A stretch of DNA of 64,000 nucleotides from Ignavibacteriota bacterium (lineage in GTDB: Bacteria; Bacteroidota; Ignavibacteria; UBA10030; CAVZMI01): positions 192,001-256,000 of the forward strand of contig CAVZMI010000023.1 in the NCBI GenBank assembly GCA_963776275.1, written 5' to 3'. The position numbers and the translations under genes were made by a program. Shown in pieces: positions 24,139 to 44,583 of the stretch (position 1 is its first letter; every line of letters starts with the position of its first letter). The notes below the pieces were generated by a model. That model was not told the origin of the DNA and did not search any database. It saw only the letters and a list, made by a program, of their open reading frames with translations.

Positions 24139-24301
24139 GTTAATTTGCGTATTTTGTTATGCCGCTAAATATGTGTGCAAAGTGTGCAGCGGTCCTGTGA
24201 ATTCAGAATATGTTTTATCTATGACACGGCTGCTGCATTTTATTATCAGATGTGTCTTCAAGAAATTCTTTAGCGAATTGAGGATGCAATTGAATATCGA
24301 A

Positions 24302-24730
24302 CTATTCTCTCGTTAATATTACTTCTAGTACTAATTCGTGCCCTCCTTTAATGGCAGTATTTTGCATTTTTAAAACGACTCTATCCGGACTCTCTTTTGC
24401 AAAAGTTTGCACCAGCAAAGTGTCGTGCCAGTTCATGGCCAGGGTTTCATCGTCAACAAAATTGCAGGTTGCCGTCAAAAAGGCACCGGAATTCTCGAAC
24501 CACCAATATCTGTACACCTTAGCCCTGTCATCCCACGCAAAAATGCCGTGCGCCTCACCACCTGATTTTGTCGAATAATCAAAGAAGACGTATTTGTCAT
24601 CTAGCCCTCTTTTGAACGATCCGGTACCAGAGTCCGACCCGGCTTCACTGAATGTGCTCTTTGGTATTCGATACTCCAAATTCCAATTTCCCAGGAGGAA
24701 TTCGAATTTTTTCATAGCTTCTGTGTGCAT
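24302..24730 (-). CDS. Hypothetical protein (DUF1579-like beta barrel)
   Basis: MKKFEFLLGNW...WD...YRYWWF and a GAGG RBS. Confidence 0.6.
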   Translation of the reverse strand: MHTEAMKKFEFLLGNWNLEYRIPKSTFSEAGSDSGTGSFKRGLDDKYVFFDYSTKSGGEAHGIFAWDDRAKVYRYWWFENSGAFLTATCNFVDDETLAMNWHDTLLVQTFAKESPDRVVLKMQNTAIKGGHELVLEVILTRE

Positions 24731-24744
24731 ATCGAACCTCGTTA

Positions 24745-24854
24745 TAATAACGTTTTGGAATAATCCTTGCTAAGCAGAGACCCTGTCGCACGATCAAGAC
24801 CCACTCGATCGGCCGAAGGGAATCGGGAGAGTGTCATTGCTTTTATTGTTAAAC
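24745..24854 (-). repeat. Degenerate cassette recombination site
   Basis: ATAAC-GTTT ... GAGAGTGTC ... T-GTTAAAC lies just 3' of a gene, but the stems pair poorly. Confidence 0.35.
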
Positions 24855-24887
24855 GCAGCGCAGCTAAATAGTGGTGAATATCCGAAC

Positions 24888-25610
24888 CTATGTTTTTAAG
24901 AGTAGAAGAGTAATACCCGCCCGCATTGATGGCCATAAGTTGACAAGTTTCATAATCGGGTTGTCATCCGACCAGTAGGAACAGTATTCTTTAAACCATA
25001 TCTTGAATCCGGCATCTGTTGCGTAGTTTTCCAATTCTCTCATAGTATATTCACGAAAATGGCCGGGGTTCGACCGGTCTACTCGGATCAATTCAAAAGG
25101 ATTATAACCACAAAGGAGACGAATTCGCTTTGAAAATGATGCTGCATTAGGAGTCTGTATTAAAATGCCGGCTCCTGGTTCTTTTTTCAATAATTTATAA
25201 AATAAAGTTAAAATTACCTTGGGTGAAGTGTAAAGATGTTCGATAGTTTCTGAAAATGTGATCAAATCGAAGTCTTTATAAATAAATTTATGTTCTGCCG
25301 ATTCGCATTCATTGAGATCCAATTGTATATGCTGAATAGTTAGCTCCGGAGGGACTAATCGTTCATTCTTGAATCCTAACGTTGAGATTTCTGGCTCAGG
25401 TTTTAAAAGATGTTTCAAGCAATATGTGAGGAAATGGGGTCCAACATCCAATATTTTTCTTGATTGATGTTGGTCGATAAATCGTTGAACCAGTCCTGTT
25501 GTATAGGCTAATCTTCGAGAATGGTAACGCAAGTAATAGATCTCTTCTTCAGCTAACTTTTTATTTTTGAACAGATCGAGAATATCTTCCACTGTAATTG
25601 TTTTCTGCAT
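24888..25610 (-). CDS. Class I SAM-dependent methyltransferase
   Basis: ILDVGP, FDLITFSETIEHL, IQTPN, HFREYT. The probable start is MQKT. Confidence 0.8.
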   Translation of the reverse strand: MQKTITVEDILDLFKNKKLAEEEIYYLRYHSRRLAYTTGLVQRFIDQHQSRKILDVGPHFLTYCLKHLLKPEPEISTLGFKNERLVPPELTIQHIQLDLNECESAEHKFIYKDFDLITFSETIEHLYTSPKVILTLFYKLLKKEPGAGILIQTPNAASFSKRIRLLCGYNPFELIRVDRSNPGHFREYTMRELENYATDAGFKIWFKEYCSYWSDDNPIMKLVNLWPSMRAGITLLLLKT

Positions 25611-25772
25611 AATGTCATCTCTTTTTGTGGTGCTTTTGTATTCACCCGCAAATGGGCGAATTACTAAAACCGTTGGCACGACGCACGACGTTCATAATAG
25701 CAAAGCAGCCCAGACACAGTGGTAGGAGAGAACGTTGTTGTTAACCGCAGGTCTGTGTACTACAACACTTTT

Positions 25773-26270
25773 TTACTTGTTGGCATTTTCCTCAGTCGGT
25801 TTCCAGGGTCTCAATCTCGGAATCCATCTTGGGACATTCCGTTTGTATTCAAGATATTCTTCACCAAATCTTCTTATTAACCCGGGCTCTTCTGAGAACA
25901 TAAAGTAAATACTATTGATGATAAAAAAAATAATAAACCAGATGAATATTGTGGTTGAGTGAAATATCGACGATTCTCCGAGTAGGGTAGTTAATACACC
26001 GGTGATCATTGGATTTCGAACATAAGAATAAAAACCGGTGACAACGAGTTTCTTTGTTGGGTTCCAGGGTGCCAGCGTCCCTTTGCCAACGCGTACAAAC
26101 ATCGATATTGTGATGGCAAGAATAACCATTCCGCCGGCAACTAATATCAGTCCTATGACAGACAGAATATCGGTCATGATAGTAAAATTACTCTCAATTG
26201 CAAGCGGCACGACTACGAGAACAATAAAAGGTAGTACAAATGAAAGTAGCTGCTTCGAAATAGTATTCAT
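25773..26270 (-). CDS. Isoprenylcysteine carboxylmethyltransferase / PEMT family protein
   Basis: GKGTLAPWNPT..LVVTGFYSYVRNPM, EE..L.RRFGEEY.EYKRNVPRW. Confidence 0.85.
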   Translation of the reverse strand: MNTISKQLLSFVLPFIVLVVVPLAIESNFTIMTDILSVIGLILVAGGMVILAITISMFVRVGKGTLAPWNPTKKLVVTGFYSYVRNPMITGVLTTLLGESSIFHSTTIFIWFIIFFIINSIYFMFSEEPGLIRRFGEEYLEYKRNVPRWIPRLRPWKPTEENANK

Positions 26271-26477: not shown

Positions 26478-26484
26478 CTTAAAT

Positions 26485-28497: not shown

Positions 28498-28527
28498 TTA
28501 GTTTATTCTTTATTGTAAAATTTTACC

Positions 28528-28658
28528 AAATAACGATTGCACAAACCACGCCTTTGAGCGAGCCGCTATCAAAAGAGTCATTCAATGCGGCGAGCGAAGT
28601 GGAACGAGCACTATAATCCATTTCAAAAGAGCGAGTGTCGTGGTTTGTGCTATTATGC
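28528..28658 (-). repeat. Cassette recombination site (attC-like)
   Basis: AAATAAC-GATT-GCACAAACCACG ... CGTGGTTTGTGC-T-ATTATGC. Confidence 0.8.
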
Positions 28659-28692
28659 GTTCGTGGCCGTCCGTGTCTAATTAGTTGTAGAT

Positions 28693-29085
28693 TCATGGAT
28701 TAGAGCTCAACTTGGCCGTGATGTTCGCCTCAAGAAACATCTTCGCATAGGTGTCATTGTAAAAAGTGATCCGTACGTTGTACGAACCGATGGGACGAAT
28801 CTTTACAGGCACACCGACTCGGGCATGGCTGCTGTTTTTGGACGGCCACACGATATGTCGATAGTACTGGGAGACGATTATCGGCAATAAGAATGTCGTT
28901 GCGAGCATCCAGAATCCGATAAATAACAGTGTGCTGAATTCAGCGGTCTTTGCCGAGTTTCGAAATACCATAATTATTAGTACCAACACAAGAATAACAG
29001 CAGCCATCGCAATAGCTGCCTGAAGAAATCCCGTCTTGCTGTCATGTGCTCTACAAGTCGAACATAGTGGAGCTTTAGTCGTCAC
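28693..29085 (-). CDS. Hypothetical two-TM protein (cassette; 5' end possibly damaged)
   Basis: CxxC followed by two TM helices, located between sites. Confidence 0.5.
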   Translation of the reverse strand: MTTKAPLCSTCRAHDSKTGFLQAAIAMAAVILVLVLIIMVFRNSAKTAEFSTLLFIGFWMLATTFLLPIIVSQYYRHIVWPSKNSSHARVGVPVKIRPIGSYNVRITFYNDTYAKMFLEANITAKLSSNP

Positions 29086-29224
29086 CGAGGTGCCCGGACC
29101 TAACAGTTTTCATGATTGTTTAGTCCTTTCGGTTGTGTCTGGCTGCGGATTACGGCAGTCGCGATGAATCAGGCCGTATATCAGTGCTTTGGTTTATTGT
29201 GTCTGTGGCGAAGCCCGGAGCCGC

Positions 29225-29270
29225 CGAACAGGCGGCGGAGCGTCTACGCTCTGTTGTGCGAAGTTCCGAG
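29225..29270 (-). repeat. Remnant right half of a cassette site
   Basis: T-GTTGTGCGAAGTTCCGAG pairs with the cassette start TTCGGAATTTCGCCCAAC at 29921-29938. Confidence 0.6.
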
Positions 29271-29326
29271 TCCTGCCCGAGATAGACTTTTAATTACTGG
29301 GGCTATTACAGATAAATTCATTACAA

Positions 29327-29899
29327 TCATTCTGCTAAAGGAATTTCATTAATAATTGTTTTAAGAATATTTGCTTTGCTTTTCATATCGCTCTGTTTGA
29401 TCTTGTCAGTTTTAATTATTTTTGTCGCTTTTTCTATTGAGTTCGCTAATGCCGTTAAATCATGAAAAATTGCTGCTTTACAGAAAAAGCTTCTCGATCT
29501 TCCATCATCAAATTTACCTATCATTGTTTCAAGTAATTTGATGCGTTTTTTCTGTTGCTCTATAAATTTTTTGATTCCATGTTCTTTTATAAAATACAAA
29601 TTCGGCAAAACTTTTTTACATGATGGGTACGAAGAAGACTCCTTTACTTGCTTATATTCTTCAGCACTTTTAAATTTTGCACAAGGGAAATCTGAACATT
29701 CTGAACAAACTTCAAGATTTTTTTTCTTGACGCAACAGGTTATGAAGGAACATGATGGACGTTTATTGAAGAAATTAGGGCCACCACATCCAGGACATCT
29801 TGAAGTCCCTACAGTATAGTATCTAGGGCATAGACCACAATCAAGGCCACATACACCAATTGTTGGGTATTTTTTCAAAATAGAGCTTGATTTTCCCAT
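29327..29899 (-). CDS. DUF3795-type Cys-rich protein (cassette)
   Basis: CGLDCGLCP, CPGC, CSFITCC, CSECSDFPC, FDDGRSRSFFC. Confidence 0.8.
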   Translation of the reverse strand: MGKSSSILKKYPTIGVCGLDCGLCPRYYTVGTSRCPGCGGPNFFNKRPSCSFITCCVKKKNLEVCSECSDFPCAKFKSAEEYKQVKESSSYPSCKKVLPNLYFIKEHGIKKFIEQQKKRIKLLETMIGKFDDGRSRSFFCKAAIFHDLTALANSIEKATKIIKTDKIKQSDMKSKANILKTIINEIPLAE

Positions 29900-29931
29900 G
29901 ATTATACCTCCTTTAATCCGTTCGGAATTTC

Positions 29932-30184
29932 GCCCAACGTCTAGGCAAACCGCCGTCCTACCCCGATACTATAATAATCAATTCATCTGTGTCGGGGTAG
30001 GGTGGAGCGAGCACTTTACATTTCGCCAACCTTTGTTTTCTCATCGCCTATCCAGTGTGCGCCTGCTCGCCTCGCTCTGCCGAGTATCTCGAGGCGGAGC
30101 GGGTCCGCCATGCTTTATCTTTTGGCGGAAGCGTTTACCCGCCATGTTTCATCTTCTGGCGGGCCGGTTTGCCGTTTGTTAGGC
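29932..30184 (-). repeat. Cassette recombination site, expanded by extra hairpins
   Basis: GCCCAAC-GTCT-AGGCAAACCG ... CGGTTTGCC-GTT-T-GTTAGGC. Confidence 0.75.
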
Positions 30185-30253
30185 GCAGGCAAAGTTCAAT
30201 ATCGATCGCGTTTTGCGGCACAATCGGATGGTGCCTAGTGGTTTGTCGAAACC

Positions 30254-30712
30254 TCAGCTGCCGATGGTAAGCGCGGTTGCTGGTTTCCACCTCCATGCAT
30301 ACCAGACGATTAGCGAAGTACACACAATCTCGATAGTTGCAAAGAATATGTAATAGAGAGCTGGCCTCGTTCCTCCAACAAACGCCGACAACATAACAGC
30401 CGCAGTGTGTAATACACCTATGACAATGTTTGTCCAGCGATTTGCTCTGTACTCCAATACGCGGGAGAGGAGAACCATGGCAATCGCAGTCTCTATGAGT
30501 ATTGCGGATCCCAACAAGAATCCTTGAGTGATATGAAGAGACCCTACATACCCTGTCATTATTTCCTTTAGTGTCGTAGGATCAATTAATGAATGGATAT
30601 CCGCATAAGCATAATTGAACAGTGCAAATATCCATAGTGTTGAGAGTCTTACCTTCATTTCATTCATTTCGTTGGCCTTTCGTGTTGATGAATCTGCAGA
30701 GTGGTTTGTCAT
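30254..30712 (-). CDS. Membrane protein, DUF6326-like (cassette)
   Basis: LSTLWIF.LFNYAYADI...MVLLSRVL..RANRWTNI...YIFFATIE. Confidence 0.75.
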   Translation of the reverse strand: MTNHSADSSTRKANEMNEMKVRLSTLWIFALFNYAYADIHSLIDPTTLKEIMTGYVGSLHITQGFLLGSAILIETAIAMVLLSRVLEYRANRWTNIVIGVLHTAAVMLSAFVGGTRPALYYIFFATIEIVCTSLIVWYAWRWKPATALTIGS

Positions 30713-30830
30713 GTGAATACCTTCAAGGGATTCGGTATAGGGCCACCAGACTATTGCTTATATGGTCTCCACATGACCTAGCCGCAATAGATGTGCCGCA
30801 AAACGCCTTAAGGAATGAATCTTTGCTTGC

Positions 30831-30933
30831 GCATAACGTCCGCAACAAAAATGCCGTCCCGTTTGCCGCTATGATCGACCAATTCCGTTTGCGGCAAACG
30901 GGATGGTTCATTTTACATTTTTGTTGCTGATAT
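30831..30933 (-). repeat. Cassette recombination site split by IS110 (continues at 32567)
   Basis: GCATAAC-GTCC-GCAACAAAAATG ... CATTTTTGTTGC-T-G|ATAT. The remainder ATATGCGGCG follows the IS. Confidence 0.8.
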
Positions 30934-32570
30934 TTTCTAAAAGGTGCCCCTAAGAGTCAAGAGAAATGAGTATTATATAAGCGCAAACAAACACAACACT
31001 CATTCACTTGAGCCAAAGGCTCATCAGCCTACGGCTGAGACTCAAAGGAGGCCATATGTATTACACCGGAGTTGATCTTCATCGCCGTCTCATCGTTCTG
31101 TGCACAGTTGATGAGAGTGGAACAATAGTAGCGCGAGCTCGTATGCGAACAGAACCTGAAAAGATTATTGGCTATTTCTCTCAATGGGCCGCTCCGCAAA
31201 AGGCTGTTGTTGAATGTACAGGGAGTTGGTATTGGTTCTGTGATCTACTCCGCACAAACGGAATTAAAATTCTACTGGCTCACGCAAAATACCTCAAAGC
31301 TATATCATATGCAAAAGTGAAAACCGATGCAGTCGATGCGCAAACGTTGGCACAGTTATTACGCATGGGGTATATTCCCGAAGCTCACCAGCTTTCACCC
31401 GAATATCGTTCTATGCGTGATCTTCTCAGACAACGAATGGTGATGGAACATAAACGGACGAACATGATACAACGCATCGCAAGCATCCTGGCTCAGTTCA
31501 ACATCACCAGCTATCCCGTTGCCCCGTATCAATCTGGATTTGCTGATTTTCTTAACGAATGCCCCATACCGGCAGAATATCGAATGACACTATTGATGTA
31601 CCACCAGCAATGTCTCCAGGCAACCGAACACAGAAAACAGTTAGAAAAATACTTTAAAACGAAACTACGCCCCACACCGGTTGTTCAGCTCCTGATGTCC
31701 ATCCCCGGCATCGGAGATATCACCGGTTCAATCATTGCAATGGAAACAGGGGATATCAATCGCTTTGCTGATGCCAAGCATTATTGCTCGTACTGTCGAC
31801 TCGTACCCGGAGCAAAAGACTCAGGTGGTAAACATAGCCATCGTTCGGGCTCAAAAGATGGCAACCAGTATCTCAAGTATGCCTTCACCGAAGCTGCCAT
31901 CTCCGCCTGAGGCGGATGCGCCTCTGGCGCAAAAGCGATGATGTATTATCCCGAGATCAAGCACTTCGCGACTCAACTGGAACGACGATCTACAAAAAGA
32001 ATCGCACGAACGGTTGTTGCCAAAGAACTGGCGAAGATCACATATCACGTTCTACATCGAAAACAAGAATTTATAACATTTAAGGGCATAGAGATCGACA
32101 AATTACGTGACTGGCCTTCCCGACCCTGTCGGGAGAAGCCCGTGCGCATAACAGGAGAAGAGGTATATTCTCCTCACGCTTGATTGGGATCCGGGAGTGT
32201 CGCCGATGAAATATCCGGGATGTGTTGTTGATCCGTGTTGAAGCCAAAGCCCGTTAAACCTGTCCTGAGCTTGCCGAAGGAGTGTTTGGGACGCCGGTCC
32301 TTGATCGTGTCTGATCCCTTACCCAGGGATATTTGCTCGGCGCTATGTCAATACTCAGACCTCTGTTGTCAATGAACAATATCAATCGTTGTTCTCACAA
32401 CGATATAGGAATACTTTTTTCTCTTGTGAAGTTCCGACGTACTTTGTCGGAACGACATCCCGCCGTTCTCGTCTATCCTGAGCGAGTCCCGCCTTATGCG
32501 GGACGAGTCGAAGGATGGCGGGGACTTTGCTTGCCCCGCGTTCTTTGCGGGGCCTTTTATAAAGTAATAT
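30930..32570 (+). mobile_element. IS110-family element (IS1111-like)
   Basis: ATAT at both junctions, subterminal imperfect IRs (TTTCTAAAAGG / CCTTTTATAAA), and a non-coding region of about 380 bp downstream of the transposase. Confidence 0.82.
31056..32183 (+). pseudogene. IS110-family DEDD transposase interrupted by a 30-bp in-frame insertion carrying TGA
   Basis: GVDLH, VVEC, KTDAVDA, SIPGIG, SGGK, GNQYLK. AAGGAGG RBS. ORFs 31008-31910 and 31938-32183 are in the same frame. Confidence 0.88.
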
Positions 32571-32674
32571 GCGGCGTGCCCTGACCAGTATTCTCAAATG
32601 AGCGAGTGCAGACCCAGCCCACGGGCGGTGCAGACATGAGGTCGAAGAAAGCTGGTCGCTCGAGTAATCAAAGA

Positions 32675-33322
32675 TCACGGTTCCAGTTCAAAGCGCTCGA
32701 TGCAGACGCTGTCTCCTTTCATGAGATTCTTCGGATTTGTCACCTTGATCTTTGGGTTGAAGGCCTTGGCTATCGCATCTGAGGGAGCACACTCAATGGC
32801 GTATCCAATGTCCGCAGCGTTCATCTCTCGATACAGCTTGGCGATGAGGCATTCGGTGTACTTTGCCTCGTAAGCCCGGTCGGACTTCTCAACCACTTCG
32901 TATGTGACGGCCTTGTCATAAGGTGGCGTAGCCAAATAGCCCTGGATGAGATCACCAAGCGCTTTCGGATCTCTCGAAGTGTAGCTTTTGGCCATAGAGG
33001 AGATAGCTTCGGCCATGTTGTCATCCGAAGCCTTTTTTAGGAGTTCAAGGAATTTCTTGCTGCCGAGTTTCTTTTGGAGATTCTGGAACAGCGGAACACA
33101 GTATCCATAGGTAAAGCGAAACACCTCCTCGGTGGTCATGCCCGAGTTATCCGAGTATTTCGGTTTTTGGAGCGATGCTTGCTGACCGGCAAGAGCCAAT
33201 GTAGCGCCAAACATACTGTGACAACCGAGGCAGAGGAGCGCGCCAGCCGGGAAGTCTCTTGACAAGAACTTTCTCCGGCTCGATTGGAGAGACTGATTCT
33301 TGGTTGACATGATAACCTCCAA
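32675..33322 (-). CDS. L-2-amino-thiazoline-4-carboxylate hydrolase-like protein with Tat signal (cassette)
   Basis: SRRKFL twin-arginine motif and TEC..AK.YREM.AADIGY...C..D...LMKGD..C. Confidence 0.75.
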   Translation of the reverse strand: MEVIMSTKNQSLQSSRRKFLSRDFPAGALLCLGCHSMFGATLALAGQQASLQKPKYSDNSGMTTEEVFRFTYGYCVPLFQNLQKKLGSKKFLELLKKASDDNMAEAISSMAKSYTSRDPKALGDLIQGYLATPPYDKAVTYEVVEKSDRAYEAKYTECLIAKLYREMNAADIGYAIECAPSDAIAKAFNPKIKVTNPKNLMKGDSVCIERFELEP

Positions 33323-33418
33323 AGTTGTGATGAAGTTGATGATGTCTCCGAGGTGTCACCTCACCGCCCGTGCGATAGGTGACGAGCTTTTTCAAAATCT
33401 ATGATGGTGGGGCATGCC

Positions 33419-35226: not shown

Positions 35227-35293
35227 GACGCGCAGCCGAACCACCAATTCGATCTCTTCGTGTAGATAGAAAAGTTGTAATTTTCTGTTGTCG

Positions 35294-35950
35294 TCACTGA
35301 GCCAGAGTATCGACCGTGACTGAAACAACTTTGCTCTTTTGGAACAGCTTAGTTTCTCGTATGGAACGACGAATTCTCTCGTCAAACCAAGTATTTTTCT
35401 CAGATATCTGAACTAGCTTGCCTTTCACGAACTGATAGCCGCATTCTGTACCACAACACGCACCAGATTGTTCCATTGTAGTCAACGTCCGTGTGGAACT
35501 ATCGGGTGTTAGTTCACTAAGTTTACTTAGCTCGTCATGGTAGAAGAATTTTTTTGTTTTCGGACTGAAAAGCCAAACATACGACCAACTCCCACCACTT
35601 CCATAATCGTATTCCAGCATCAGATCTAGATATCCATCGAAATTGAGATCCTTGGCTATGAATGCCCCTTCCCCAAAAGGATGGTATGTTTTGAAGTTTT
35701 TGAGGATTTGAAAAATTCCCGGTTTGTCTGACCGCTTGATTTCGATTCGTGATACCGAATGCACTGCCCCCGTCTCACTTGTATCTTCGTTAACGATGAA
35801 ATGCAATGTATATGGGGGTAGTGTAGAATGTATGGTAATGGTGTATTTGTAGTCGATTTCGTTGGGTTGACCACTTGTCAACCTATAGAAGCCTACCAAC
35901 AGGAACGCAATTCCAAGGATCATGAGTAATTTCAGTTTAGGAGTATTCAT
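35294..35950 (-). CDS. Secreted hypothetical protein, XAC2610-like (cassette)
   Basis: Signal peptide, DLNFDGYLDL, VWLFSP..KKF, SGACC. Confidence 0.65.
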   Translation of the reverse strand: MNTPKLKLLMILGIAFLLVGFYRLTSGQPNEIDYKYTITIHSTLPPYTLHFIVNEDTSETGAVHSVSRIEIKRSDKPGIFQILKNFKTYHPFGEGAFIAKDLNFDGYLDLMLEYDYGSGGSWSYVWLFSPKTKKFFYHDELSKLSELTPDSSTRTLTTMEQSGACCGTECGYQFVKGKLVQISEKNTWFDERIRRSIRETKLFQKSKVVSVTVDTLAQ

Positions 35951-36021
35951 TTCAATGAAAACCTTGAAGTATAGTTATACTATACATTGAAACCACCAAA
36001 CCTTTGGTGAGGCTGCGTGGC

Positions 36022-36139
36022 GCATAACGTCCGGCACAAAAATGACGTTGGGGCGCGAACTAATAATGACTAATTATTCTGTGAGCGACCCAATGTTTAT
36101 TCGGATTTCAAACTGCCAACATTTTTGTGCCTGTTAAGT
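36022..36139 (-). repeat. Cassette recombination site (of ORF-less cassette copy B)
   Basis: GCATAAC-GTCC-GGCACAAAAATG ... CATTTTTGTGCC-T-GTTAAGT. Confidence 0.87.
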
Positions 36140-36225
36140 GCACGTGACCGCGGCACTTCACTATACTTCAGGACTTCAACTCGCGCCACTTCAAAGACTG
36201 CTAACGCCGCGGGCATTGCACTTAA
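36028..36225 (-). mobile_element. 198-bp ORF-less cassette, copy B
   Basis: Identical by eye to 38401-38598. Confidence 0.85.
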
Positions 36226-36328
36226 CGTGTGCGGGCACTACGCAGTCCCGCTTGCCACTAAGAACAATTCAATTTTCTGTGGCAAGCGGGATTGAGTGTT
36301 CTTCACGTCGTAGTGCCCGCTGTTATGT
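36220..36328 (-). repeat. Cassette recombination site
   Basis: ACTTAAC-GTGT-GCGGGCACTACG ... CGTAGTGCCCGC-T-GTTATGT. Ends 12 bp from the gene stop. Confidence 0.87.
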
Positions 36329-36340
36329 GCAGTTGCCCGT

Positions 36341-37817
36341 TCATCGTAATAAAATAAGTTTCTTTGTCTCAACAAAACCACCAGCTTCGAGTCTATAATA
36401 ATACACACCGCTTACAATACCTAATGGATTCCATTCTGTTGTATAAGTACCGGCACTCAAATCTTGCGACAAAAGCTGTACGACTTCCTGTCCTAATGTG
36501 TTGTAGATTCTTAATGAGACATGTACTTCTTTGGGGAGTGAGAATCGTATCGTTGTGGTCGGGTTAAAGGGATTTGGATAATTTTGCCAAAGGTCGAATG
36601 CAGTCGGAATATCTCCTTCAGGTTTAATACCTTCCACCCCAACATTTCCGTCAACATCCGTCTTAATTAGATATATCTGTAGACTGTCCCCGAAAGACCA
36701 GGTTTCACCAGTTATTATATAGCCACCGTCAGTAGTCTGCTGAACGGAGTGACCATAACCCGACTCATAGGTTTTTGTCCACAATGTATCCCCAGAAGAA
36801 TTGGTTTTAAATAGGTAAACATCATAATCGAGGGCATCGTAGGAACTCTGTCCCGTGATGATGTATCCACCGTCTGTTGTCTGCTGTATGGAGTTACCAT
36901 AAGAGTAACGTCTACCCTCATAGGTCCCCCCATATGTCCTTGTCCAAACGGTGTCCCCATTGTCATTAGTCTTGATTAGATAGACTGCAGTTCCAGAGAA
37001 TAAGTCCATATCCCCAACAACGATGTAGCCGCCATCAGTAGTTTGCTGAACGGACCGACCCCTTGAATGTGATGAGCCCGCCCCCTCGTAGGTCACTTGT
37101 CCAAAGTGTATCCCCGATTGTATTAGTTTTTATAAGGTAAATATAATCTTTGTAGGTAGCAAAATTTCTGATATATCCCTCAACGATGTAGCCCCCATCC
37201 ATGGTCTGCTTGATTTCGTTTCCCTCATCAGTATAATAAGTGAGCGTTCCCCCGTAGGTCCTGGTTCACAGTGTGTCCCCGGAGGAATTGGTTTTTATCA
37301 GGTAAACTTTGTAAGAACCCTTAGCCCCTGCAACGATGTATCCGCCGTCTGTAGTTTGCTGGACGGAACTACCAAATTCGTCGCCCGACCCCCCATAGGT
37401 TTTTGTCCACAGTGTGTCTCCGGAGAAATTGGTTTTAATTAGGTAAACCTGTATGCCACTACCGAAAGAGCCGGTACTTCCCGCAACAATGTAACCACCA
37501 TCCGTAGTTTGCTGAACGGAGTGCCCCCCATCATCACCCGCTCCTCCGTAGGTATTTGTCCAAAGTATATCCCCATTGGCGTTGGTCTTTACGAGGCAGA
37601 CATCGTAATTTCCTGCACCGAAGGAATTGGTCCTGCCCGCTACGATGTAGCCCCCATCAGTAGTCTGCTGGACGGATTGACCGTATTCTCTTCTAGTCCC
37701 CCCGTAAGTCCTTTCCCACCGCTGTTGAGAAACCGCAGGTTCGGCTAAGGTGAGGATCAGCAGGAAGAACAGGAGGGTAGAAAAGGTGAGCAAGTGAAGT
37801 TTGAAACGTAACTTCAT
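36341..37817 (-). CDS. Beta-propeller-type repeat protein with T9SS C-terminal domain (cassette; frameshifts near 37095 and 37265)
   Basis: About 7 repeats of W..TYGG...G.SVQQT.DGGYIVAG...YLIKT, a signal peptide and QNYPNPFNPTTTI. Confidence 0.8.
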
Positions 37818-37949
37818 GGAAACCTCCTTATAATGATACTATTTGATAATGTTTCATAATCCAAGTATAGCATTTCATAGTACACCTCCACTAATTTTGC
37901 ACTCCTTTTCTTCCTATCGTCTGTAGGCAGATCTTGAAAGGGCAATTGC

Positions 37950-38097
37950 ACATAACGTCTGGGCCAACTACGCACCCCGACCGACCAACATTTTGTCAAT
38001 TGACGGGCGGGGGGAACGAACTCTATTTGTCGCGCCGAACTAGGCACCAACGTTGCCTTACCAAATGAAGTGAGTGTCGTAGTTGGCGCTGTTATGC
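37950..38097 (-). repeat. Cassette recombination site
   Basis: ACATAAC-GTCT-GGGCCAACTACG ... CGTAGTTGGCGC-T-GTTATGC. Confidence 0.85.
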
Positions 38098-38340
38098 GCT
38101 GGCGGCCGCCCCGCACCTGCGAATTATGACCTGCCTTGCTTTTTGACGCCTGTATGATCCCTTGCCACGGTGGGTATCGCACAGTCCCGCCCAAAACCTT
38201 TCGTATGACATGGGATGTTCATGCTTGGACCGCCAGTGCGCGTCAATTCCATCCCACCCGTGCCCTTGAAAAACGTGATTGCACTCTGGACAAATCCGAG
38301 GGCCGGTCTTCGGTACCATTTTTTCGCAACATCTGCACAT
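38092..38340 (-). CDS. Small Cys/His-rich protein (cassette)
   Basis: CPEC.HVF...WDGIDAHW...H and a GGAGG RBS. Its TAA stop lies in the site core, as is typical of cassettes. Confidence 0.65.
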   Translation of the reverse strand: MCRCCEKMVPKTGPRICPECNHVFQGHGWDGIDAHWRSKHEHPMSYERFWAGLCDTHRGKGSYRRQKARQVIIRRCGAAASA

Positions 38341-38394
38341 GTTATACTAACCTCCGTCTGTTTTGTCTGGTAATTATTCGGGGCGGCCGCTTGT

Positions 38395-38512
38395 GCATAA
38401 CGTCCGGCACAAAAATGACGTTGGGGCGCGAACTAATAATGACTAATTATTCTGTGAGCGACCCAATGTTTATTCGGATTTCAAACTGCCAACATTTTTG
38501 TGCCTGTTAAGT
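38395..38512 (-). repeat. Cassette recombination site (of ORF-less cassette copy A)
   Basis: Identical to 36022-36139. Confidence 0.87.
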
Positions 38513-38598
38513 GCACGTGACCGCGGCACTTCACTATACTTCAGGACTTCAACTCGCGCCACTTCAAAGACTGCTAACGCCGCGGGCATTGCACTTAA
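38401..38598 (-). mobile_element. 198-bp ORF-less cassette, copy A
   Basis: Identical by eye to 36028-36225. Confidence 0.85.
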
Positions 38599-38726
38599 CG
38601 TGTCGGCAAACACCGCCGTGCCGTTTGGCGTATATTAATGATTCAATTTTCCTCACGCCAAACGGCATGGAACGACCACCATAATCCTTCCCAATAAAGG
38701 GAGTGCCGGTGTTTGCCGTGTTAGGC
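38593..38726 (-). repeat. Cassette recombination site
   Basis: ACTTAAC-GTGT-CGGCAAACACCG ... CGGTGTTTGCCG-T-GTTAGGC. Confidence 0.87.
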
Positions 38727-38754
38727 GAAGTTGTTTTGCATTTGCGGAAAACGC

Positions 38755-39252
38755 TTAATGTTTCACAAGGGACTTACGAATGCGGTTATTGATCCCTTGC
38801 AGTGTATCTGTTTCAATTTGATGTTCCCAATAGCGAAGAACTTTCCATTTACACTTTCTCAGGATTCGAGTTTGTCGGACATCTCGCCTTCTGTTGTCGA
38901 GAATTTTTTCCTTCCACCAGAGCGTATGTGAGTTAGGAACCTTAAAATGAATGGGACAGCCGTGCCAAAAGCATCCATCAAGGAAGAGGCACACTTTATC
39001 CTTTGGAAACACAATATCCGCTTTTATCTTCAGCAGGGGCTCGGGTCTTACATTTGTACGAAATCTTAATCCAGCTTTTTTAAGGAAGATACGTAACCTT
39101 TGTTCCTGTTTGGTCTCGTGTCCTGTATTGCTTTGCATTACACGATGTACAAGGGGAGATGATGCACTAGGCGCACGAGATCGAATTGACTGTCTTGGCC
39201 GAGAGGCCTTTCTTCTATTGGTTGGTTTGGCTGTCCGTACTGACACTGTCAA
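38755..39252 (-). CDS. vsr: Very short patch repair endonuclease
   Basis: MQSN...ETKQE, ADIVF, FLDGCFWHGCP.H, N.RRD, W.VLRYWEH. Confidence 0.9.
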   Translation of the reverse strand: MTVSVRTAKPTNRRKASRPRQSIRSRAPSASSPLVHRVMQSNTGHETKQEQRLRIFLKKAGLRFRTNVRPEPLLKIKADIVFPKDKVCLFLDGCFWHGCPIHFKVPNSHTLWWKEKILDNRRRDVRQTRILRKCKWKVLRYWEHQIETDTLQGINNRIRKSLVKH

Positions 39253-40256
39253 ATTATTTTTGAGTCTGATGATCGTTTGTATTCTGCTTTTTCCTCACCG
39301 ACACTGATGTGAAAGGCATTTTCCGTCATACTAAAGCTAATTGGAGGTAATTCGTCGGGTGTCGCCTCAAGAGCCTGCTGCATCGGGGCTTTGACATATT
39401 TTTCCAAAAAGACGGTCATCACCTCACCAGCGGCTTTTTCGAGGTGCCGCCAAGCTTCATCTCCGACAAATGTAGTGCCACCAGCATCCTTGAATGCAGC
39501 AACCAATTCAGTGAGTTTCGGGTTTGGTGTTGGATCAAGAACGATGAGAACGGGTTTGTATCCACTTTGTTTGCAGTCTGTTGGAAAATCAACTTCTTCC
39601 TGCCAGCGACCTTGTCCCGATGCAGCGATGGTAACTCGAATCTTGATCTCGTATGCTAACTTATCTCGGATGCAATCAACTTGACGCCCTTTCGAGCCAT
39701 CATCGTGTCGTTTGATTGGACTTGCCTTAGCGCTAAAGGAAGCACCTCCGATTGCATTGGCGATTATTGGTTCGAAAAGGTAGCCAGTTTCTTGTCCAGC
39801 TCTATTGTCGATATCGAACAGCCACTTTCTCCATAGGAGGAACCCAGCTAGAGCTTGAGGGCTCATTTGCCCATACTGCAGGAGCGTCCGTGGACCTACT
39901 TGATCCATGGTTGGAACAGCTTGGTATTCAAGTATCCGAGCGTATTTCAGCCTGCTTTTTTGCAGGGTTGCCAAACAAGAGAAGTATGTATCAGCGTCCG
40001 GGATCAGTTTGAAAAGGCGTTCAATAAGCATGTAAAAGTCTAACTTAGTGAGTTCAAGCTTACGGGGATCGGCCTCGTCGAAGAATTCTGGAAAGCTTAT
40101 TTTAACCTCAGGAAACTTCTTAAGGATTTTCAAATCACGAACGATCGTTGCGACGAGGAAGGCACAAGCTTCATCTGAAAGGCCTGTGCCTAATTCACCG
40201 CCGCCAGCCGCCCTTGCCTTTTCAACGAGCGACTTCTGAGATTGTGTTATTGCCAT
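39249..40256 (-). CDS. Putative type II restriction endonuclease
   Basis: Overlaps both the C5-MTase and vsr. PD-(D/E)xK-like QVD...AYEIK preceded by GYLFE. Confidence 0.72.
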   Translation of the reverse strand: MAITQSQKSLVEKARAAGGGELGTGLSDEACAFLVATIVRDLKILKKFPEVKISFPEFFDEADPRKLELTKLDFYMLIERLFKLIPDADTYFSCLATLQKSRLKYARILEYQAVPTMDQVGPRTLLQYGQMSPQALAGFLLWRKWLFDIDNRAGQETGYLFEPIIANAIGGASFSAKASPIKRHDDGSKGRQVDCIRDKLAYEIKIRVTIAASGQGRWQEEVDFPTDCKQSGYKPVLIVLDPTPNPKLTELVAAFKDAGGTTFVGDEAWRHLEKAAGEVMTVFLEKYVKAPMQQALEATPDELPPISFSMTENAFHISVGEEKAEYKRSSDSKII

Positions 40257-41491
40257 AAAGCTATTTGCTCCAGTCCGATTTCTATGCGAGTAGTGGGAAA
40301 CCTACGTCTAATGCGGTATGTAATATCTTCAAGTACAGGACTCTTTCCGCTTGAGACTGTAGGAACAAAAGACAGTAATGCTCCATTCTTAAAAGACTGA
40401 ATGTTTGAAACTTTTTCAAGATCAAGTTGTAGATTGAGAGCAATTACTTCAGCAAGACGTGGTGGAACAGCATTCCCAATTTGTAGGATACATTCAGTGG
40501 TATTTCCAATAAAGATGAAGTCATCAGGGAAACTTTGAATGCGAGCACACTCGCGAAGTGTTAAGGTTCGATCATCAATAGGATGGATGAATTCTGATGT
40601 GGCACCACTCGTAATTGCCTTCGACGGTTGATCGTCTCTCAACCGTCTCAGTCCTGCGGGAGCTCCACCTCTTCGTTCTGTTGGGGTTCCGTCCATTACT
40701 CTTCTAAACGCTCTGCGTCGATAACTCTCATGCCATAACTCAGTAGGTAGGTCTTTCATCGTCTGACCTGGTTTCAGAAGGCGGACACGTTCAATGTCCT
40801 GCTCGGATAGTGGACGATAATAATGGCCATCTGGAAAACCGGGTGGCAACAGAGTAGGACGTGGTAAACCCCTAAGTGCATCGGCTAGCGTCGGACACGG
40901 AGGGAGATGCTTGAAGGCCTTTGATGCCCCAGGAGCTCCGTAAGCCGAATAAGTCGGTTCTGGGAACCGAGGAGACCATCCCAAGCCGCCAATTGCTATT
41001 ACTCGCTTGCGATGCTGAGGAACTCCGAAGTTTGCAGCGTTTATTTTTCGAAGATGGATCTGATAGCCTACGTCAACCAATGGTTCAAGTAGATCGAACA
41101 CTCTATTCCCATTATCTGCAGTTAGAAAACCCTCGACGTTCTCGAAGACAAATGCTTTTGGTTTGTGTTGGACAACTAGTTCTGAAAAAACTCTGACAAG
41201 TGTGTTTCTATGGTCATCTGAACGACGCATTCCCGCTGAGGAGAATCCCTGACAAGGTGGCCCTCCTATAATCACATCCGTGGATGGAATAATAGTTGAT
41301 TCGGTTATATTATCTGTCAGGATATGGTCTTCAAAGTTCCTTCTGTATGTCCTCGTTGCTGATTCATTGGAATCTATAGCAACAACGCAAGTAAATCCCG
41401 CCTTTTGAAAACCAAGCGAGAGCCCACCAGCACCGCAGAACAAGTCTGCGTAGGTCATATTGTTATTATGTCCTTGGTCTATTTCCAACAT
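40247..41491 (-). CDS. DNA (cytosine-5)-methyltransferase
   Basis: DLFCGAGG (I), GGPPCQGFS (IV), FENV (VI), PQHRKR (VIII), RECARIQSFPD (IX), QIGNAVPP (X). Confidence 0.95.
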   Translation of the reverse strand: MLEIDQGHNNNMTYADLFCGAGGLSLGFQKAGFTCVVAIDSNESATRTYRRNFEDHILTDNITESTIIPSTDVIIGGPPCQGFSSAGMRRSDDHRNTLVRVFSELVVQHKPKAFVFENVEGFLTADNGNRVFDLLEPLVDVGYQIHLRKINAANFGVPQHRKRVIAIGGLGWSPRFPEPTYSAYGAPGASKAFKHLPPCPTLADALRGLPRPTLLPPGFPDGHYYRPLSEQDIERVRLLKPGQTMKDLPTELWHESYRRRAFRRVMDGTPTERRGGAPAGLRRLRDDQPSKAITSGATSEFIHPIDDRTLTLRECARIQSFPDDFIFIGNTTECILQIGNAVPPRLAEVIALNLQLDLEKVSNIQSFKNGALLSFVPTVSSGKSPVLEDITYRIRRRFPTTRIEIGLEQIALWQ

Positions 41492-41568
41492 ATTGGTACT
41501 TCTTTACCCGTATTCGTTGCATGAAACATAATAAAAACTTATCAAAAGTCATAATGCAAAACAATTTC

Positions 41569-41701
41569 GCCTAACGTCTCGCCCAACAACGCAGCGCTTT
41601 TGCGAACTATAAATGGACCAATTCATTTGTGAAGCAAAAGCGTTGAGCGACAACAACTATACTCTATCAAAGATGGAGCGTCGTTGTTGGGCGTGTTATG
41701 C
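41569..41701 (-). repeat. Cassette recombination site
   Basis: GCCTAAC-GTCT-CGCCCAACAACG ... CGTTGTTGGGCG-T-GTTATGC. Confidence 0.87.
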
Positions 41702-41964
41702 GAAGCGCCCAAAGTCGCCTATTGGATACCACACGAAGCTAACGGTGTTACAAATAACGGGTGCCCCAACACAAGAATGCCGATCAAGAGTACAACATCA
41801 ATAATTTTATTACGTCCAGTTGATTTGCTGGATATACACATTTTACAAATTAATTTAGCTCCTTAGAGGTGTTAAAAATTTATTTTGTTATTATAACCCT
41901 TATTATTTTGGACAAATTATATTTGCATCTCTGCTTTGTTTATGTCATTCTTAAAAACTAAACT

Positions 41965-42390
41965 TTATGGACCTACATAACCACAACTGGAACAAATCTG
42001 TACCCCAGTAAGTCCAGCTTTTGGACCGTAGCCAGATGCACCGCAGCGCGGGCATTTTGGCCTAGAGGCAGTTACAATAGCCCAACAAGCTGGGCACACG
42101 GCCAAAAATGGTTTTCCATCTAATGTGGTATACGGTTCTGTCAATGCTGGGTGACCGATTTCGCCTTCAACTTGTCCACGATTAGAAGCGGGTACGAATG
42201 TGAATCGGCCAGTAGGTTTTCGACCACAAAAATTGCACGTATCATATTGAGGTTTAGAATTATTGTTCTTCGGATAATCTATCATATCTTCATGTTTCTT
42301 CTCTGATGCAAAGGTACCACGACCGCATCTAGGACATTTAATTAATCCATTTGGTACCTTCTCTCCACAGATGGCACATATTTTTTCCAT
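41965..42390 (-). CDS. Zinc-ribbon-rich hypothetical protein (cassette)
   Basis: Six CxxC pairs. The probable start is MEKIC at 42390. Confidence 0.6.
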   Translation of the reverse strand: MEKICAICGEKVPNGLIKCPRCGRGTFASEKKHEDMIDYPKNNNSKPQYDTCNFCGRKPTGRFTFVPASNRGQVEGEIGHPALTEPYTTLDGKPFLAVCPACWAIVTASRPKCPRCGASGYGPKAGLTGVQICSSCGYVGP

Positions 42391-42611
42391 ATGATTTATC
42401 GCCTTCTTAGTTTTTTTAGTATATACTTTGTATATATAAATATTGATTATATGGTTTCCATATAATACGCCTTCGCCATTGCCCTTCGGCATAACACGTC
42501 TCTGCTGTTTGCTCGTCAGGTTCCTTGTTTTTCCGGTTCTTGTATTAATAATAGTATAAATGGGTAACGATTCTATTGATATAGTCAGTCCTTTCTATCT
42601 TTGGGCGTTTC

Positions 42612-42728
42612 GCATAACGTACTGCGGCAACACGCCGTGCCGCCATTCCATGAAACATGAAATGACGGCGGCATGGAGCGAGCACCTTGAATATGAAACG
42701 GCGAGCGTCGTGTTGCCGCATGTTAGTT
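42612..42728 (-). repeat. Cassette recombination site (first cassette)
   Basis: GCATAAC-GTAC-TGCGGCAACACG ... CGTGTTGCCGCA-T-GTTAGTT. Confidence 0.87.
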
Positions 42729-42994
42729 GCAGGCGCCGCTTCCACTGCCCTTTTCCCAAAGGGATCAATCCGGACAGTTGGCGCGCGTTCTCCATGGTGG
42801 CAGTGCCTTGCCAGTTCTCTTGCCAATCGTGGCATACTGCAGACGCTAAGGACACGTTGAACTTTCCGAACAATTGACTGCTTCCTCGTGACTGCCGCAC
42901 GCTTGGGATGACGACCCATGCGCAATATCATAGTCTCATCGTTCATTCCACCGCGGTTCCAAATATTTCGGCCGGTCATTTTCGTGAGATTTTT

Positions 42995-43369
42995 TCAGTC
43001 GGTGCATAGATTTATTGTCGGGAGCATAAATTGTCCTACAAAGAATTTATTGTCAATCGTTACAATCGCATTGTAGTATGAGCCGATCCCAAGGAATCCG
43101 CTATTGTAGGTCACCATCAGTTCGACGCTGTGGCCGCTATAAGTTCCAGTTGCATTGATCCCTTTCCAATCAAAAACAGGGACCGATTTAGTTATTACGG
43201 TTGAATCATTGACTATTACCTTGATAGCTGGATATAGTCCCGATTTCTCAACTCTGACCTGCCAAGTCTCACTAGTTGCACACGGCGATTGATATGTTGC
43301 GAACTTCGATGAGTAGCAGCCCGCGATTAGAAAACCGAATAGTAAAAAGAACGGTAACTTTCTCTTCAT
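42995..43369 (-). CDS. Putative lipoprotein (first cassette)
   Basis: MKRKLPFFLLFGFLIAGC lipobox. Confidence 0.7.
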   Translation of the reverse strand: MKRKLPFFLLFGFLIAGCYSSKFATYQSPCATSETWQVRVEKSGLYPAIKVIVNDSTVITKSVPVFDWKGINATGTYSGHSVELMVTYNSGFLGIGSYYNAIVTIDNKFFVGQFMLPTINLCTD

Positions 43370-43616
43370 ATTCTGCCTTTTTCTGTCTGATTTACTCCGA
43401 GACCGGAACTGCGGCTAAAGATGACCTTGACTGACACCTTTGGAACAGCTTGGTCATCGGCGCCATGGTAAGCAACGGTCGCCACGGAGATACCAACTCG
43501 TCTCTTCATTGATTGCCCTTGATAAAAATCCTCCACGAATTTATCAGGTCTCATGTTAAGTGTTCCAGCATTGCCGCGCGCCAACAAGTCGCAACCACTC
43601 TTTTAATAACTTTCTG

Positions 43617-43668
43617 GCGGCGCTTGCAACTAACATTTGCAACAACGCTATATAGCGTTGTTCTCTTT
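43617..43668 (-). other. Putative primary insertion site (attI-equivalent)
   Basis: GCGGCGCTTGCAACTAA|C-ATTT-GC-AACAACGCTATATAGCGTTGTT. A lone core plus a palindrome overlapping the recombinase stop. Confidence 0.65.
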
Positions 43669-44583
43669 TTTATCTGTGTCAGGAAGATAAATCTTTCTAT
43701 CTTTTTCTTCCTTCGGTAGCTCTTCTATCATTGAGTCGAGCGGACTTTTAATCTTCCCGATCGTACGAGTACTTATATGCGTGTAAATTTCTGTCGTTTT
43801 AATACTGCCATGCCCTAATAACTCTTGAATGTACCGTATATCCGTTCCATGTTCCAATAGAGCTGTCGCAAATGAATGCCGGAGTGTATGCATAGAAACC
43901 GTCTTGCGGATACTGGCTGATTTCACTGCACGTTCAATGACTTCCTGGATGCTCCGTTCTGATAAATGTCGTCCCGGTTTTGCACCGGGAAAAAGCCATC
44001 CGACTTCAGTAATCCTATATAATTGTACATAAGCATGGAGAGCACTCAGTACCGCTCTTGAAAGAATTGTGTATCGATCCTTTTTATGCTTTCCTTCTCG
44101 TACATGAATAACCATCCTTACCACATCAAGATCTTCGGTTCGCAAACGAACAACCTCGCCCACGCGTAATCCGCTTCCATAGGCGATCATCAACATTACT
44201 TTATGTTTTAGATTATCAATTTCTCTGAATATTCTTAGAACCTCTCCCTGATTCAGTACATCAGGGAGTCTTTTCTCCTTCATCGGCCGAGGTATTGAAT
44301 CGATCTTAAAAGGCATTCCATATAAATCGACATACAGTAATCGTAGAGCGTTAAAAACCTGGTTAATGCTCGATGCCTGGAATTGACGCTCCTCGATCAA
44401 GTAAAGCAGGTACGAGTGAATATCGTCCTCTGTCACATCGCGCGGGTGCCGCGGTCGAAAATAACTCACAAAGGAATGAAGCCAGCTAATATACGATTTG
44501 ATCGTCTTCGAACTATAGTTTTTCAGGCGCATCTCGCGCCGAACTGTCTCGAAAAACCCCGGCTTACTTTGTAACTTCTCCAT
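43648..44583 (-). CDS. Integron-integrase-like tyrosine recombinase lacking the IntI-specific insertion
   Basis: N-terminal MRLKNYS.KTIKSY (SAM-like), GLRVGE (R), GKHKKDR (K), HTLRHSFAT (HxxR), LLGH, TTEIYTH (Y), KSPLD. Confidence 0.9.
   Translation of the reverse strand: MEKLQSKPGFFETVRREMRLKNYSSKTIKSYISWLHSFVSYFRPRHPRDVTEDDIHSYLLYLIEERQFQASSINQVFNALRLLYVDLYGMPFKIDSIPRPMKEKRLPDVLNQGEVLRIFREIDNLKHKVMLMIAYGSGLRVGEVVRLRTEDLDVVRMVIHVREGKHKKDRYTILSRAVLSALHAYVQLYRITEVGWLFPGAKPGRHLSERSIQEVIERAVKSASIRKTVSMHTLRHSFATALLEHGTDIRYIQELLGHGSIKTTEIYTHISTRTIGKIKSPLDSMIEELPKEEKDRKIYLPDTDKKENNAI

Follow-up and report, generated by a model that had tools for sequence, protein, structure and literature searches.

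An IntI-like recombinase without the IntI-specific insertion beside an array of attC-like hairpin sites in an Ignavibacteriota genome

Classical integron integrases (IntI) carry an additional domain specific to them, the I2 helix, which is approximately 35 amino acids (aa) in length and located near patch III. A 64,000-nucleotide (nt) stretch of an Ignavibacteriota genome (G000:C23:192001-256000, on contig CAVZMI010000023.1; hereafter the window) raises the question of whether an array of gene cassettes can be served by a recombinase that has no such domain. An earlier note on this stretch described minus-strand genes separated by related hairpins beside the gene of a tyrosine recombinase, here named P0001, and proposed that these form a distinct cassette-shuffling system. 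Having compared the locus with related loci in other genomes, we consider it probable that the window holds a distinct, working or recently working integron-type gene-cassette platform. The best reading of these sequence comparisons is that the system is sister or ancestral to classical integrons and that it is widespread.

P0001 and the IntI insertion

P0001 (311 aa) is encoded on the minus strand at 43648..44583. Pfam matches divide it into an N-terminal SAM-like domain (Phage_int_SAM_4, PF13495, 6.3e-21) and a catalytic domain (Phage_integrase, PF00589, 4.4e-40). Its best NCBIfam match is the integron integrase profile TIGR02249, with a score of 237.7 bits that lies below the curated cut-off of 265; the match is split into two stretches, and model positions 182-234 are skipped. 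The cut-off of a second profile, NF011946, is not reached (161.5 vs 435). The closest relative of P0001 in the PDB by sequence is VchIntIA (2a3v, E 1.5e-44), and VchIntIA is also the closest fold to the AlphaFold2 model of the protein (pLDDT 84.6; Foldseek E 5.9e-17, TM 0.65), with XerA second. IntI1 is 31% identical to P0001, with 314 aa aligned to 275 query residues. P0001 is thus IntI-like on the grounds of profile and structure comparison, as its best matches of both kinds are integron integrases.

The insertion that characterizes IntI is absent, as the earlier note had read from the letters: the motifs ALHAYVQLY and WLFPG are joined by only six residues (RITEVG) at the place of the insertion. 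Pairwise alignments put the insertion of IntI at approximately 40 aa, and in the PDB sequence alignment residues 183 to 205 of P0001 pair with residues 178 to 240 of IntI4. The AlphaFold2 model of P0001 has no helix at residues 190-208. In a multiple alignment, the IntI1 and same-order IntI proteins contain two insertions, one of approximately 28 aa (..LPxAL..KYP..W..) and a second of approximately 10 aa (S.DPRSG), both of which are missing from P0001, its family and the Xer-like proteins. The catalytic residues proposed from the sequence are intact: R140, K165, H232, R235, H258 and Y267, assigned by homology as the R-K-H-R-H-Y catalytic set, are invariant across 50 homologs. P0001 and its family further share with IntI a C-terminal xSPxD motif and the GKGxKDR spacing, neither of which is found in the Xer-like proteins of this genome.

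Site structure, cassette boundaries and the exchange point

A covariance model (R1) was built from nine intergenic palindromes aligned at their ends and run with filters off. It finds 12 minus-strand sites in the window at E <= 2.3e-12, three of them outside the seed, and so bears out the count of at least 12 related hairpins. The total at E <= 1 is 19 matches: these 12 sites, a 14.8-bit match at the attI-like site described below and six weak plus-strand echoes of the same sites. Rfam, searched at gathering thresholds, gave no matches in the window (no attC family). A hand-written hairpin scan with strict geometry recovered 7/12 sites with no false match in the 64 kb; when loosened, it lost strand information and specificity, so it was used for no count.

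In order from the recombinase gene, the attC-like sites (all minus strand; R1 scores in brackets) lie at 42606..42736 (site 1, R'' AACTAAC and R' GTTATGC; 112.3 bits), 41563..41709 (site 2, with a perfect 12-bp stem and spacers of 1 and 4 nt; 131.1 bits), 38587..38734 (site 3; 133.4 bits), 38389..38520 (site 4; 90.9 bits), 37944..38105 (site 5; 101.5 bits), 36214..36336 (site 6; 114.5 bits), 36016..36147 (site 7; 89.4 bits), 35057..35234 (site 8; 120.9 bits), 33413..33573 (site 9, outside the seed alignment and with a degenerate R', ATTATGC; 75.6 bits), 30825..30946 (site 10, with a degenerate R'' half; 81.3 bits), 29926..30192 (site 11, a long site of 267 nt outside the seed alignment; 55.9 bits) and 28522..28666 (site 12, the last detected; 116.8 bits). 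Sites 4 and 7 belong to two copies of an open reading frame (ORF)-less cassette of 198 bp, which lie within a 233-nt repeat (D4; 36022-36254 and 38395-38627, 96% identical); this cassette consists of little beyond its own site. The array therefore extends from 28522 to 42736, or approximately 15 kb including the attI-like site, rather than over the roughly 20 kb (24140..44583) first supposed: at 24140-28500, R1 finds no site at E <= 1 with filters off. The genes of that stretch encode a beta-lactamase-fold hydrolase, PEMT, a methyltransferase and HAD by Pfam, and may be ordinary chromosome.

The sites are imperfect palindromes of 110-270 nt, and one of them closes each of the cassettes, of which there are at least 12. 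In predicted minimum free energy folds, the 5' part of each site (in cassette direction) consists of R'' (GCATAAC-like), 1 nt, a perfect 12-bp stem and then a 5'-side bulge of approximately 17-60 nt, which opens with AC(G/A)CTC and closes with a CTCGCTCCA-like box. The 3' part consists of a second stem and loop, the 3' half of the 12-bp stem, 4 nt (GGAC or AGAC) and R' (GTTATGC-like). Among the 12 sites, the R'' boxes read GCATAAC, ACATAAC, GCCTAAC, ACTTAAC or AACTAAC, and the R' boxes GTTATGC, GTTATGT, GTTAGGC or GTTAAGT. The core consensus of attC is RYYYAAC...GTTRRRY, which these boxes fit, with GTTATGY deviating from GTTRRRY at one position. The two single extrahelical bases of canonical attC are not seen in the predicted folds, in which a perfect or near-perfect 12-bp stem is followed by one large bulge. 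As a control, the canonical attC beside a same-order IntI (locus L125) was folded in the same way; it has two single-base bulges 6 bp apart, and it shares with the sites described here an equal asymmetry of short 5' and long 3' spacers. The extrahelical bases of attC are docked by the I2 helix, according to the available text of a 2020 study (eLife 2020).

Covariation is strong, and the structure of the sites is real. RNAalifold predicts 25 pairs from the nine seed sites, 23/25 of them with compensatory changes. In an alignment of 50 sites from this genome and 12 other loci, which was fitted to the covariance model and whose figures should be read with that in mind, 90.2% of cells are paired (vs 53.7% in shuffles and 35-44% with slid partners) and 25/25 pairs covary.

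The attI-like site (43617..43647, minus strand) adjoins the recombinase gene. Its GTTAGTT box lies at 43634-43628, and the G of this box is the 14th base past the recombinase stop codon, exactly where the array was said to begin; the crossover is presumed to fall between 43634 and 43633. R1 matches this region weakly (43622-43679, 14.8 bits), and from the attI-like G onwards, 17/18 nt show complementarity to the R'' end of site 1 (inverted repeat I14). The co-orientation of recombinase gene and array is likewise real. It is not in itself the unusual trait that it was taken for, as the available part of an earlier survey describes an 'inverted integron-integrase group' whose intI and cassettes point in the same direction (Cury 2016).

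The boundaries of the cassettes are visible in the relationship between successive sites. From the G of each R' onwards, 18 nt show complementarity to the R'' end of the following site at 17, 17, 17, 11, 15, 16, 11 and 16 of 18 positions (mean 15.0). With the R'' of their own site they agree at 8-12 of 18 positions (mean 9.6), and with those of other sites at 9.7 on average (maximum 13, n = 56). Complementarity to the next site implies that each cassette has an R'' of its own and also owns the distal part of the R' before it, which is the signature of crossover at G|TT with chimeric R' boxes.

A second copy of the platform points to the same position. Contig C22 (16.2 kb) carries the recombinase gene, cassette 1 and site 1 at 94-99% identity to the copy in the window; its upstream context differs, and it contains an insert of 1149 bp. 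Both copies read identically up to and including ...GCAGTACGTTA, after which C22 continues with AGCGCAATGCCCGCGG... and the window with TGCGAAACGCCC...; this split falls right after GTTA, inside the R' box where crossover is predicted. The second cassette on C22 (approximately 12945-13170) is a diverged third copy of the ORF-less 198-bp cassette, and the presence of the same small cassette at three array positions fits shuffling. C22 is either a second locus or a strain variant (the genome has a contamination estimate of 5.3%). Genetic linkage, site structure, cassette boundaries and an exchange point at GTT| are all established at the level of sequence.

Two further features of this copy deserve mention. 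The 1149-bp insert, which sits in cassette 1 of the C22 copy, looks like an insertion sequence and is present at G000:C22:11219-12367 and C23:64167-65314 (99.8% identical). The recombinase ORF on C22 is cut to 274 aa by an unrelated stretch of 313 bp. More arrays of the same type were found elsewhere in this genome with no recombinase beside them (C32:251-12862, C34:31094-34989, C12:49949-60293 and C7:13863-46072); several are located at contig ends, and assembly may have split one or two larger arrays into these parts.

A mechanism can be proposed by analogy. P0001 would recombine the attI-like site with the attC-like sites, and these sites with each other, at the G|TT of R'. The substrate would most likely be, as in canonical attC, a folded single strand, whose R and L stems would re-form a core site with two arms. 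Cassettes would be excised as circles and integrated at attI, and resolution would then require replication, as in classical integrons. The one-sided conserved bulge could provide polarity and strand choice, replacing the two extrahelical bases and the I2 helix. Because the recombinase gene is co-oriented with the array and only 14 nt away from it, the first cassettes may perhaps be expressed by read-through from this gene.

The recombinase family, its arrays and other explanations

The family to which P0001 belongs is large, with 7919 proteins at E <= 1e-10 among 8000 candidates scored. TIGR02249 matches 50/50 family members (best E 2.1e-75). The best 120 homologs (53-99% identity) all lack the insertion, having 43-46 residues in a region expected to be approximately 40 residues longer with it. 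Linkage to arrays was examined at 80 loci, which represent insertion-less homologs (41-59% identity) in species-representative genomes; all 80 lack the insertion. The genomes are labelled as Chlorobiaceae, Ignavibacteriales, Bacteroidales, Clostridia/Bacillota, Spirochaetota/Treponema, Thermotogae, Anaerolineales, groups of the candidate phyla radiation (CPR), Gammaproteobacteria and one Thermoplasmata archaeon.

R1 has matches at 15/80 of these loci. A second covariance model (R2), built from the 50 aligned sites and counted at E <= 0.01, gives 43 matches in 21/80 loci, and the linkage spans at least 6 phyla. Carriers of the system include the isolates Paenibacillus alkaliterrae DSM 17040 (L034) and Flavobacterium sp. 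MAHUQ-57 (L061). The placement of these matches is strongly biased: 40/43 are downstream on the strand of the gene, none is downstream on the other strand or upstream on the same strand, and three are upstream and divergent. This bias is seen despite the larger amount of upstream sequence searched (461 kb vs 335 kb downstream). The first site is located 0.5-2.6 kb past the gene in 17/18 loci. A contig end lies within 400 nt downstream of the gene in 22/80 loci and within 400 nt upstream in 8/80. Alignments show the site ends TCGCATAACA ... ACGTTATGCGAAA also in Treponema, Bacillota and CPR loci, and the sequence of the R boxes is better conserved across phyla than in classical attC. At many loci a GTTA(T/G)(G/A)C-type box can be recognized by eye, with no statistics attached, 60-115 nt past the stop codon, often with ATACGCAAT-like repeats ahead of it.

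Some members of the family depart from this pattern. In three CPR-labelled metagenome-assembled genomes (MAGs; L068, L071 and L088), the sites lie upstream and the recombinase gene is transcribed away from them, which is the arrangement of classical integrons. At other loci (L012-L014, L023, L029, L030, L033, L036, L038 and others) the frame is open for 60-170 aa further upstream than in P0001, giving 350-475 aa from the first Met; either the members from Bacteroidales and Clostridia have a genuine extension at the N terminus, or the frame simply happens to be open. The homolog in a Thermoplasmata-labelled MAG (L041; 44% identity, 2.9-kb contig) is followed by a GTTATACGCAA box approximately 50 nt past the stop codon, and the contig ends approximately 130 nt past the stop.

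Within the same order, R2-type sites are present in 92/151 genomes and close homologs of P0001 in 60/151, at 0-4 copies each, a distribution that is accessory and not housekeeping-like. Sites occur in 54/60 genomes with a close homolog vs 38/91 without, so that homologs and arrays co-occur here as they do across phyla; a Fisher p-value would overstate this link, as related genomes are not independent. Among the same-order genomes, at least 21 further genes are followed after a few kb, on the same contig, by a co-oriented site. In G309 (6 contigs) there are two insertion-less genes with arrays and, on another contig, a canonical IntI with no such site near it; at G309:C2:499060-499902 and 500121-500925, two insertion-less recombinase genes stand in tandem ahead of one array.

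These data bear on a first alternative, which we consider unlikely: that P0001 is a Xer-like resolvase, or the integrase of a single mobile element, and that the array arose by successive integrations at a dif-like site. Modules that exploit Xer are known, such as the integrative mobile elements exploiting Xer (IMEX) and the pdif modules of Acinetobacter plasmids, and the R box (GCGCATAAC-like) presumably resembles a Xer binding arm. P0001 has the same fold as XerC, XerD and XerA, none of which has an I2 helix; its score with the XerA profile NF040815 is a borderline miss (219.8 vs a cut-off of 220), and the platform is found in two upstream contexts, those of C22 and C23. Single-stranded hairpin substrates for Xer, as with CTX phage, are also discussed in the available text of the study cited above (eLife 2020). 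Against this explanation, the XerC and XerD profiles fall far short of their cut-offs (178.8 vs 335 and 178.1 vs 330), and the genome has two separate Xer-like genes, on C6 and C11, whereas the family of P0001 is accessory, sometimes with several copies per genome. In place of a single dif site there are long hairpins, directly repeated in arrays next to the gene, and the cassettes (0.2-3 kb) are mostly single genes with no mobility genes, one small cassette recurring at three positions.

A second alternative is that these are ordinary cassette arrays serviced in trans by a canonical IntI that has been lost or was not assembled, the adjacent recombinase being idle on the array or otherwise employed. 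Arrays of this kind are known as CALINs, i.e., attC clusters lacking integron integrases, in the parts of the IntegronFinder papers available. IntegronFinder would presumably call the present array a CALIN, as it is of attC type and no protein beside it passes the test for IntI, and recombinase-less arrays are also present in this genome. Canonical IntI genes above the TIGR02249 cut-off are frequent in the phylum and order (90/301 genomes of the phylum), and many same-order genomes hold both a canonical IntI and R2-type sites (e.g., G014, G024 and G153).

Several observations make service in trans an improbable explanation all the same. Unlike a CALIN, the array has a dedicated, conserved IntI-like recombinase adjacent to it and co-oriented, and adjacency, side and strand are conserved across phyla. 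R2 gives no match around 20 canonical IntI genes (approximately 9 kb on each side, 330 kb), with one 22.5-bit match for R1 in the same regions; in the same order, arrays that adjoin a canonical IntI are built on another type of site, which has two single-base bulges. R2, run with filters off, also detects 0/3 attC sites of a class 1 integron. Together with the score of P0001 below the IntI cut-off, these results favour the claim that the system is distinct. IntI typing covered 32/151 same-order genomes, with 10 checked individually. No canonical IntI above the cut-off was found in the present genome (96.4% complete, 5.3% contamination), nor in three nearly complete relatives (G316, G393 and G305; 97-99% complete, 6-20 contigs) in which the insertion-less gene is followed by 6, 9 and 15 sites, respectively, in agreement with the expectation that no such enzyme serves the array. 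Finally, an 11-site array in G024 ends at a remnant of an insertion-less gene: 59 residues, within an open frame of 78 aa, match residues 230-288 in the C-terminal part of P0001 at 75% identity.

The relationship between the two kinds of recombinase was examined in unrooted trees, built after removal of the insertion columns. Canonical IntI proteins, including IntI1, form one clade with 100% support (14-39 canonical IntI across trees). In a quick IQ-TREE analysis under a mixture model, this clade is sister to one that holds all 46 insertion-less rows (support 87; union 80), and the family and IntI together are split from the Xer-like proteins of this genome by a 99% branch. In a FastTree tree of 124 rows, canonical IntI is nested within the insertion-less radiation, next to the CPR-type group with divergent arrays; the nearest neighbour of canonical IntI in this tree is the group of L068, L071 and L088. 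Under both trees, the insertion-less family and canonical IntI are most closely related to one another, and each is linked to cassette arrays.

These trees also bear on the very improbable explanation that the locus is a dead classical integron whose integrase suffered a recent internal deletion. P0001 is IntI-like and its insertion is cleanly missing, as this would predict; the explanation is already contradicted by the absence of the insertion from the 120 best homologs (to 53% identity) and from all 80 loci, and further by the separation of the family from the canonical IntI clade, the invariant catalytic residues and sites unlike canonical attC. That the hairpins are terminator-like or repetitive extragenic palindrome-like repeats unconnected with recombination, as GC-rich palindromes between convergently read ORF ends might suggest, is hardly tenable and already contradicted by boundary complementarity that spans whole cassettes, by the split of C22 and C23 exactly inside GTT|A and by the strong strand and side bias relative to the recombinase.

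The integron-type platform that we favour shares much with classical integrons. Its recombinase is the closest relative of IntI and the attI-like site adjoins the gene; the cassettes are unrelated, mostly single genes that look promoter-less, and include a restriction-modification defence system. The palindrome ends have the R''/L''/L'/R' organization with the same spacer asymmetry, and crossover at G|TT with a chimeric R' is common to both. The platform differs from classical integrons in that P0001 has neither the I2 helix (additional domain) nor the second small insertion and scores below the IntI cut-off, in the perfect 12-bp L stem with a single large, conserved bulge where classical sites have two single extrahelical bases, in site models that miss canonical attC (both same-order and class 1), and in hosts that include Bacillota and CPR-labelled MAGs.

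More generally, insertion-less IntI-like recombinases would run a second, ancient and widespread integron class on hairpin sites of their own, in genomes of the Bacteroidota/Ignavibacteria type, Spirochaetota, Bacillota/Clostridia, CPR and possibly Archaea, such that capture of folded sites would predate the I2 helix and need none. We give this broader proposal an even chance of being correct. A number of findings weigh against it or against the platform itself. The I2 region is held to be necessary for cassette capture in the available text of one study (eLife 2020). Among the 48 loci with at least 1.5 kb of downstream sequence, only 16 have an R2 site there, and a subclade of 12 members (10 loci informative) has no R2 site at all. 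The homolog of Persicobacter (L145), an isolate in which the gene is on a 1.6-Mb replicon, has no site within 12 kb, where R1 and R2 give nothing above noise. Such sites are still borne by the 38/91 same-order genomes that lack a close homolog, and a genome of the same genus (G304) has 27 sites and neither kind of recombinase. As IntI is common in the phylum and the present genome is incomplete and has some contamination, an IntI may have been missed. Lastly, the site models were trained on sites of this genome, and may both miss divergent arrays and overstate the distinctness of the class.

Recombinases of this kind may have been encountered before. In a survey of 2484 complete genomes, recombinases that lack intI_Cterm and lie next to attC sites were examined, and 21 of these were in genomes without IntI; four of the 21, none of which had as many as three sites, were called 'intermediate between IntI and Xer', and the conclusion in the available text was that they 'are not IntI' (Cury 2016). 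These four may belong to the family of P0001. Archaeal IntIs have the additional domain in the part of the report available (Ghaly 2022), and a lack of evolutionary intermediates has been remarked upon (eLife 2020, available text). No description of insertion-less integrases with cassette arrays was found in the full-text literature covered, which was partial and included few subscription journals and no supplements.

The question matters for integron biology, in which the I2 helix or additional domain is taken as a defining and functional part of the integrase; a large sister family without it and tied to arrays would alter the account of integron origins. If the proposal is true, this family would supply the 'missing intermediates' of integrase evolution, surveys based on intI_Cterm would have overlooked a large share of cassette platforms, and the host range of integron-type platforms would be widened to phyla in which integrons are considered rare or absent. 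Many 'CALIN' arrays would be reclassified as complete elements, and the enzyme and its sites would offer a simpler natural pair for structure-specific recombination tools.

Cassettes and neighbouring genes

The cassettes of the window (0.2-3 kb) are mostly single genes with no mobility genes of their own, and several ORFs match no family. Cassettes 1 and 2 (41575..43633, minus strand) contain ORFs of 73 aa and 124 aa without a family match and a 175-aa zinc-ribbon protein. Cassette 3 (38599..41574, minus strand), whose boundaries are set by R' boxes, is a three-gene restriction-modification unit: it encodes a C5 DNA methylase (40247-41491, minus strand; PF00145, 2.6e-67), a weak match to an ApaLI-like endonuclease that is below its cut-off (39249-40256, minus strand; PF09499, 2.4e-4) and Vsr (38755-39252, minus strand; PF03852, 6.3e-15). 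Further unrelated cassettes on the same strand (28667..38598) contain an 82-aa ORF, a repeat protein with a type IX secretion system (T9SS) sorting domain, a 218-aa ORF, a 4Fe-4S protein, an ATC hydrolase, DUF6326 and DUF3795.

Contrary to the earlier note, the genes of the array are not all on the minus strand: an IS110-family transposase (PF01548 and PF02371) is encoded on the plus strand at 31008..31910. This gene is directly beside site 10, the sole site with a degenerate R'' half, and an orphan GTTATGC box is found at 32152-32146. In classical integrons, IS110/IS1111 elements are known to target attC sites, and by analogy the present gene may belong to an element with the same attC-targeting habit on variant sites.

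Upstream of the recombinase gene, a 193-nt direct repeat (44844-45036 and 45448-45640, 73% identity) extends over CMD-family and GNAT genes; we have no explanation for it. Within the array, two adjacent minus-strand ORFs of 183 and 251 aa (36341-37817) share repeats of approximately 50 aa with a period of approximately 150 nt (families D1-D5). The second of these ends in the T9SS sorting domain, and the two may be one gene split by a frameshift.

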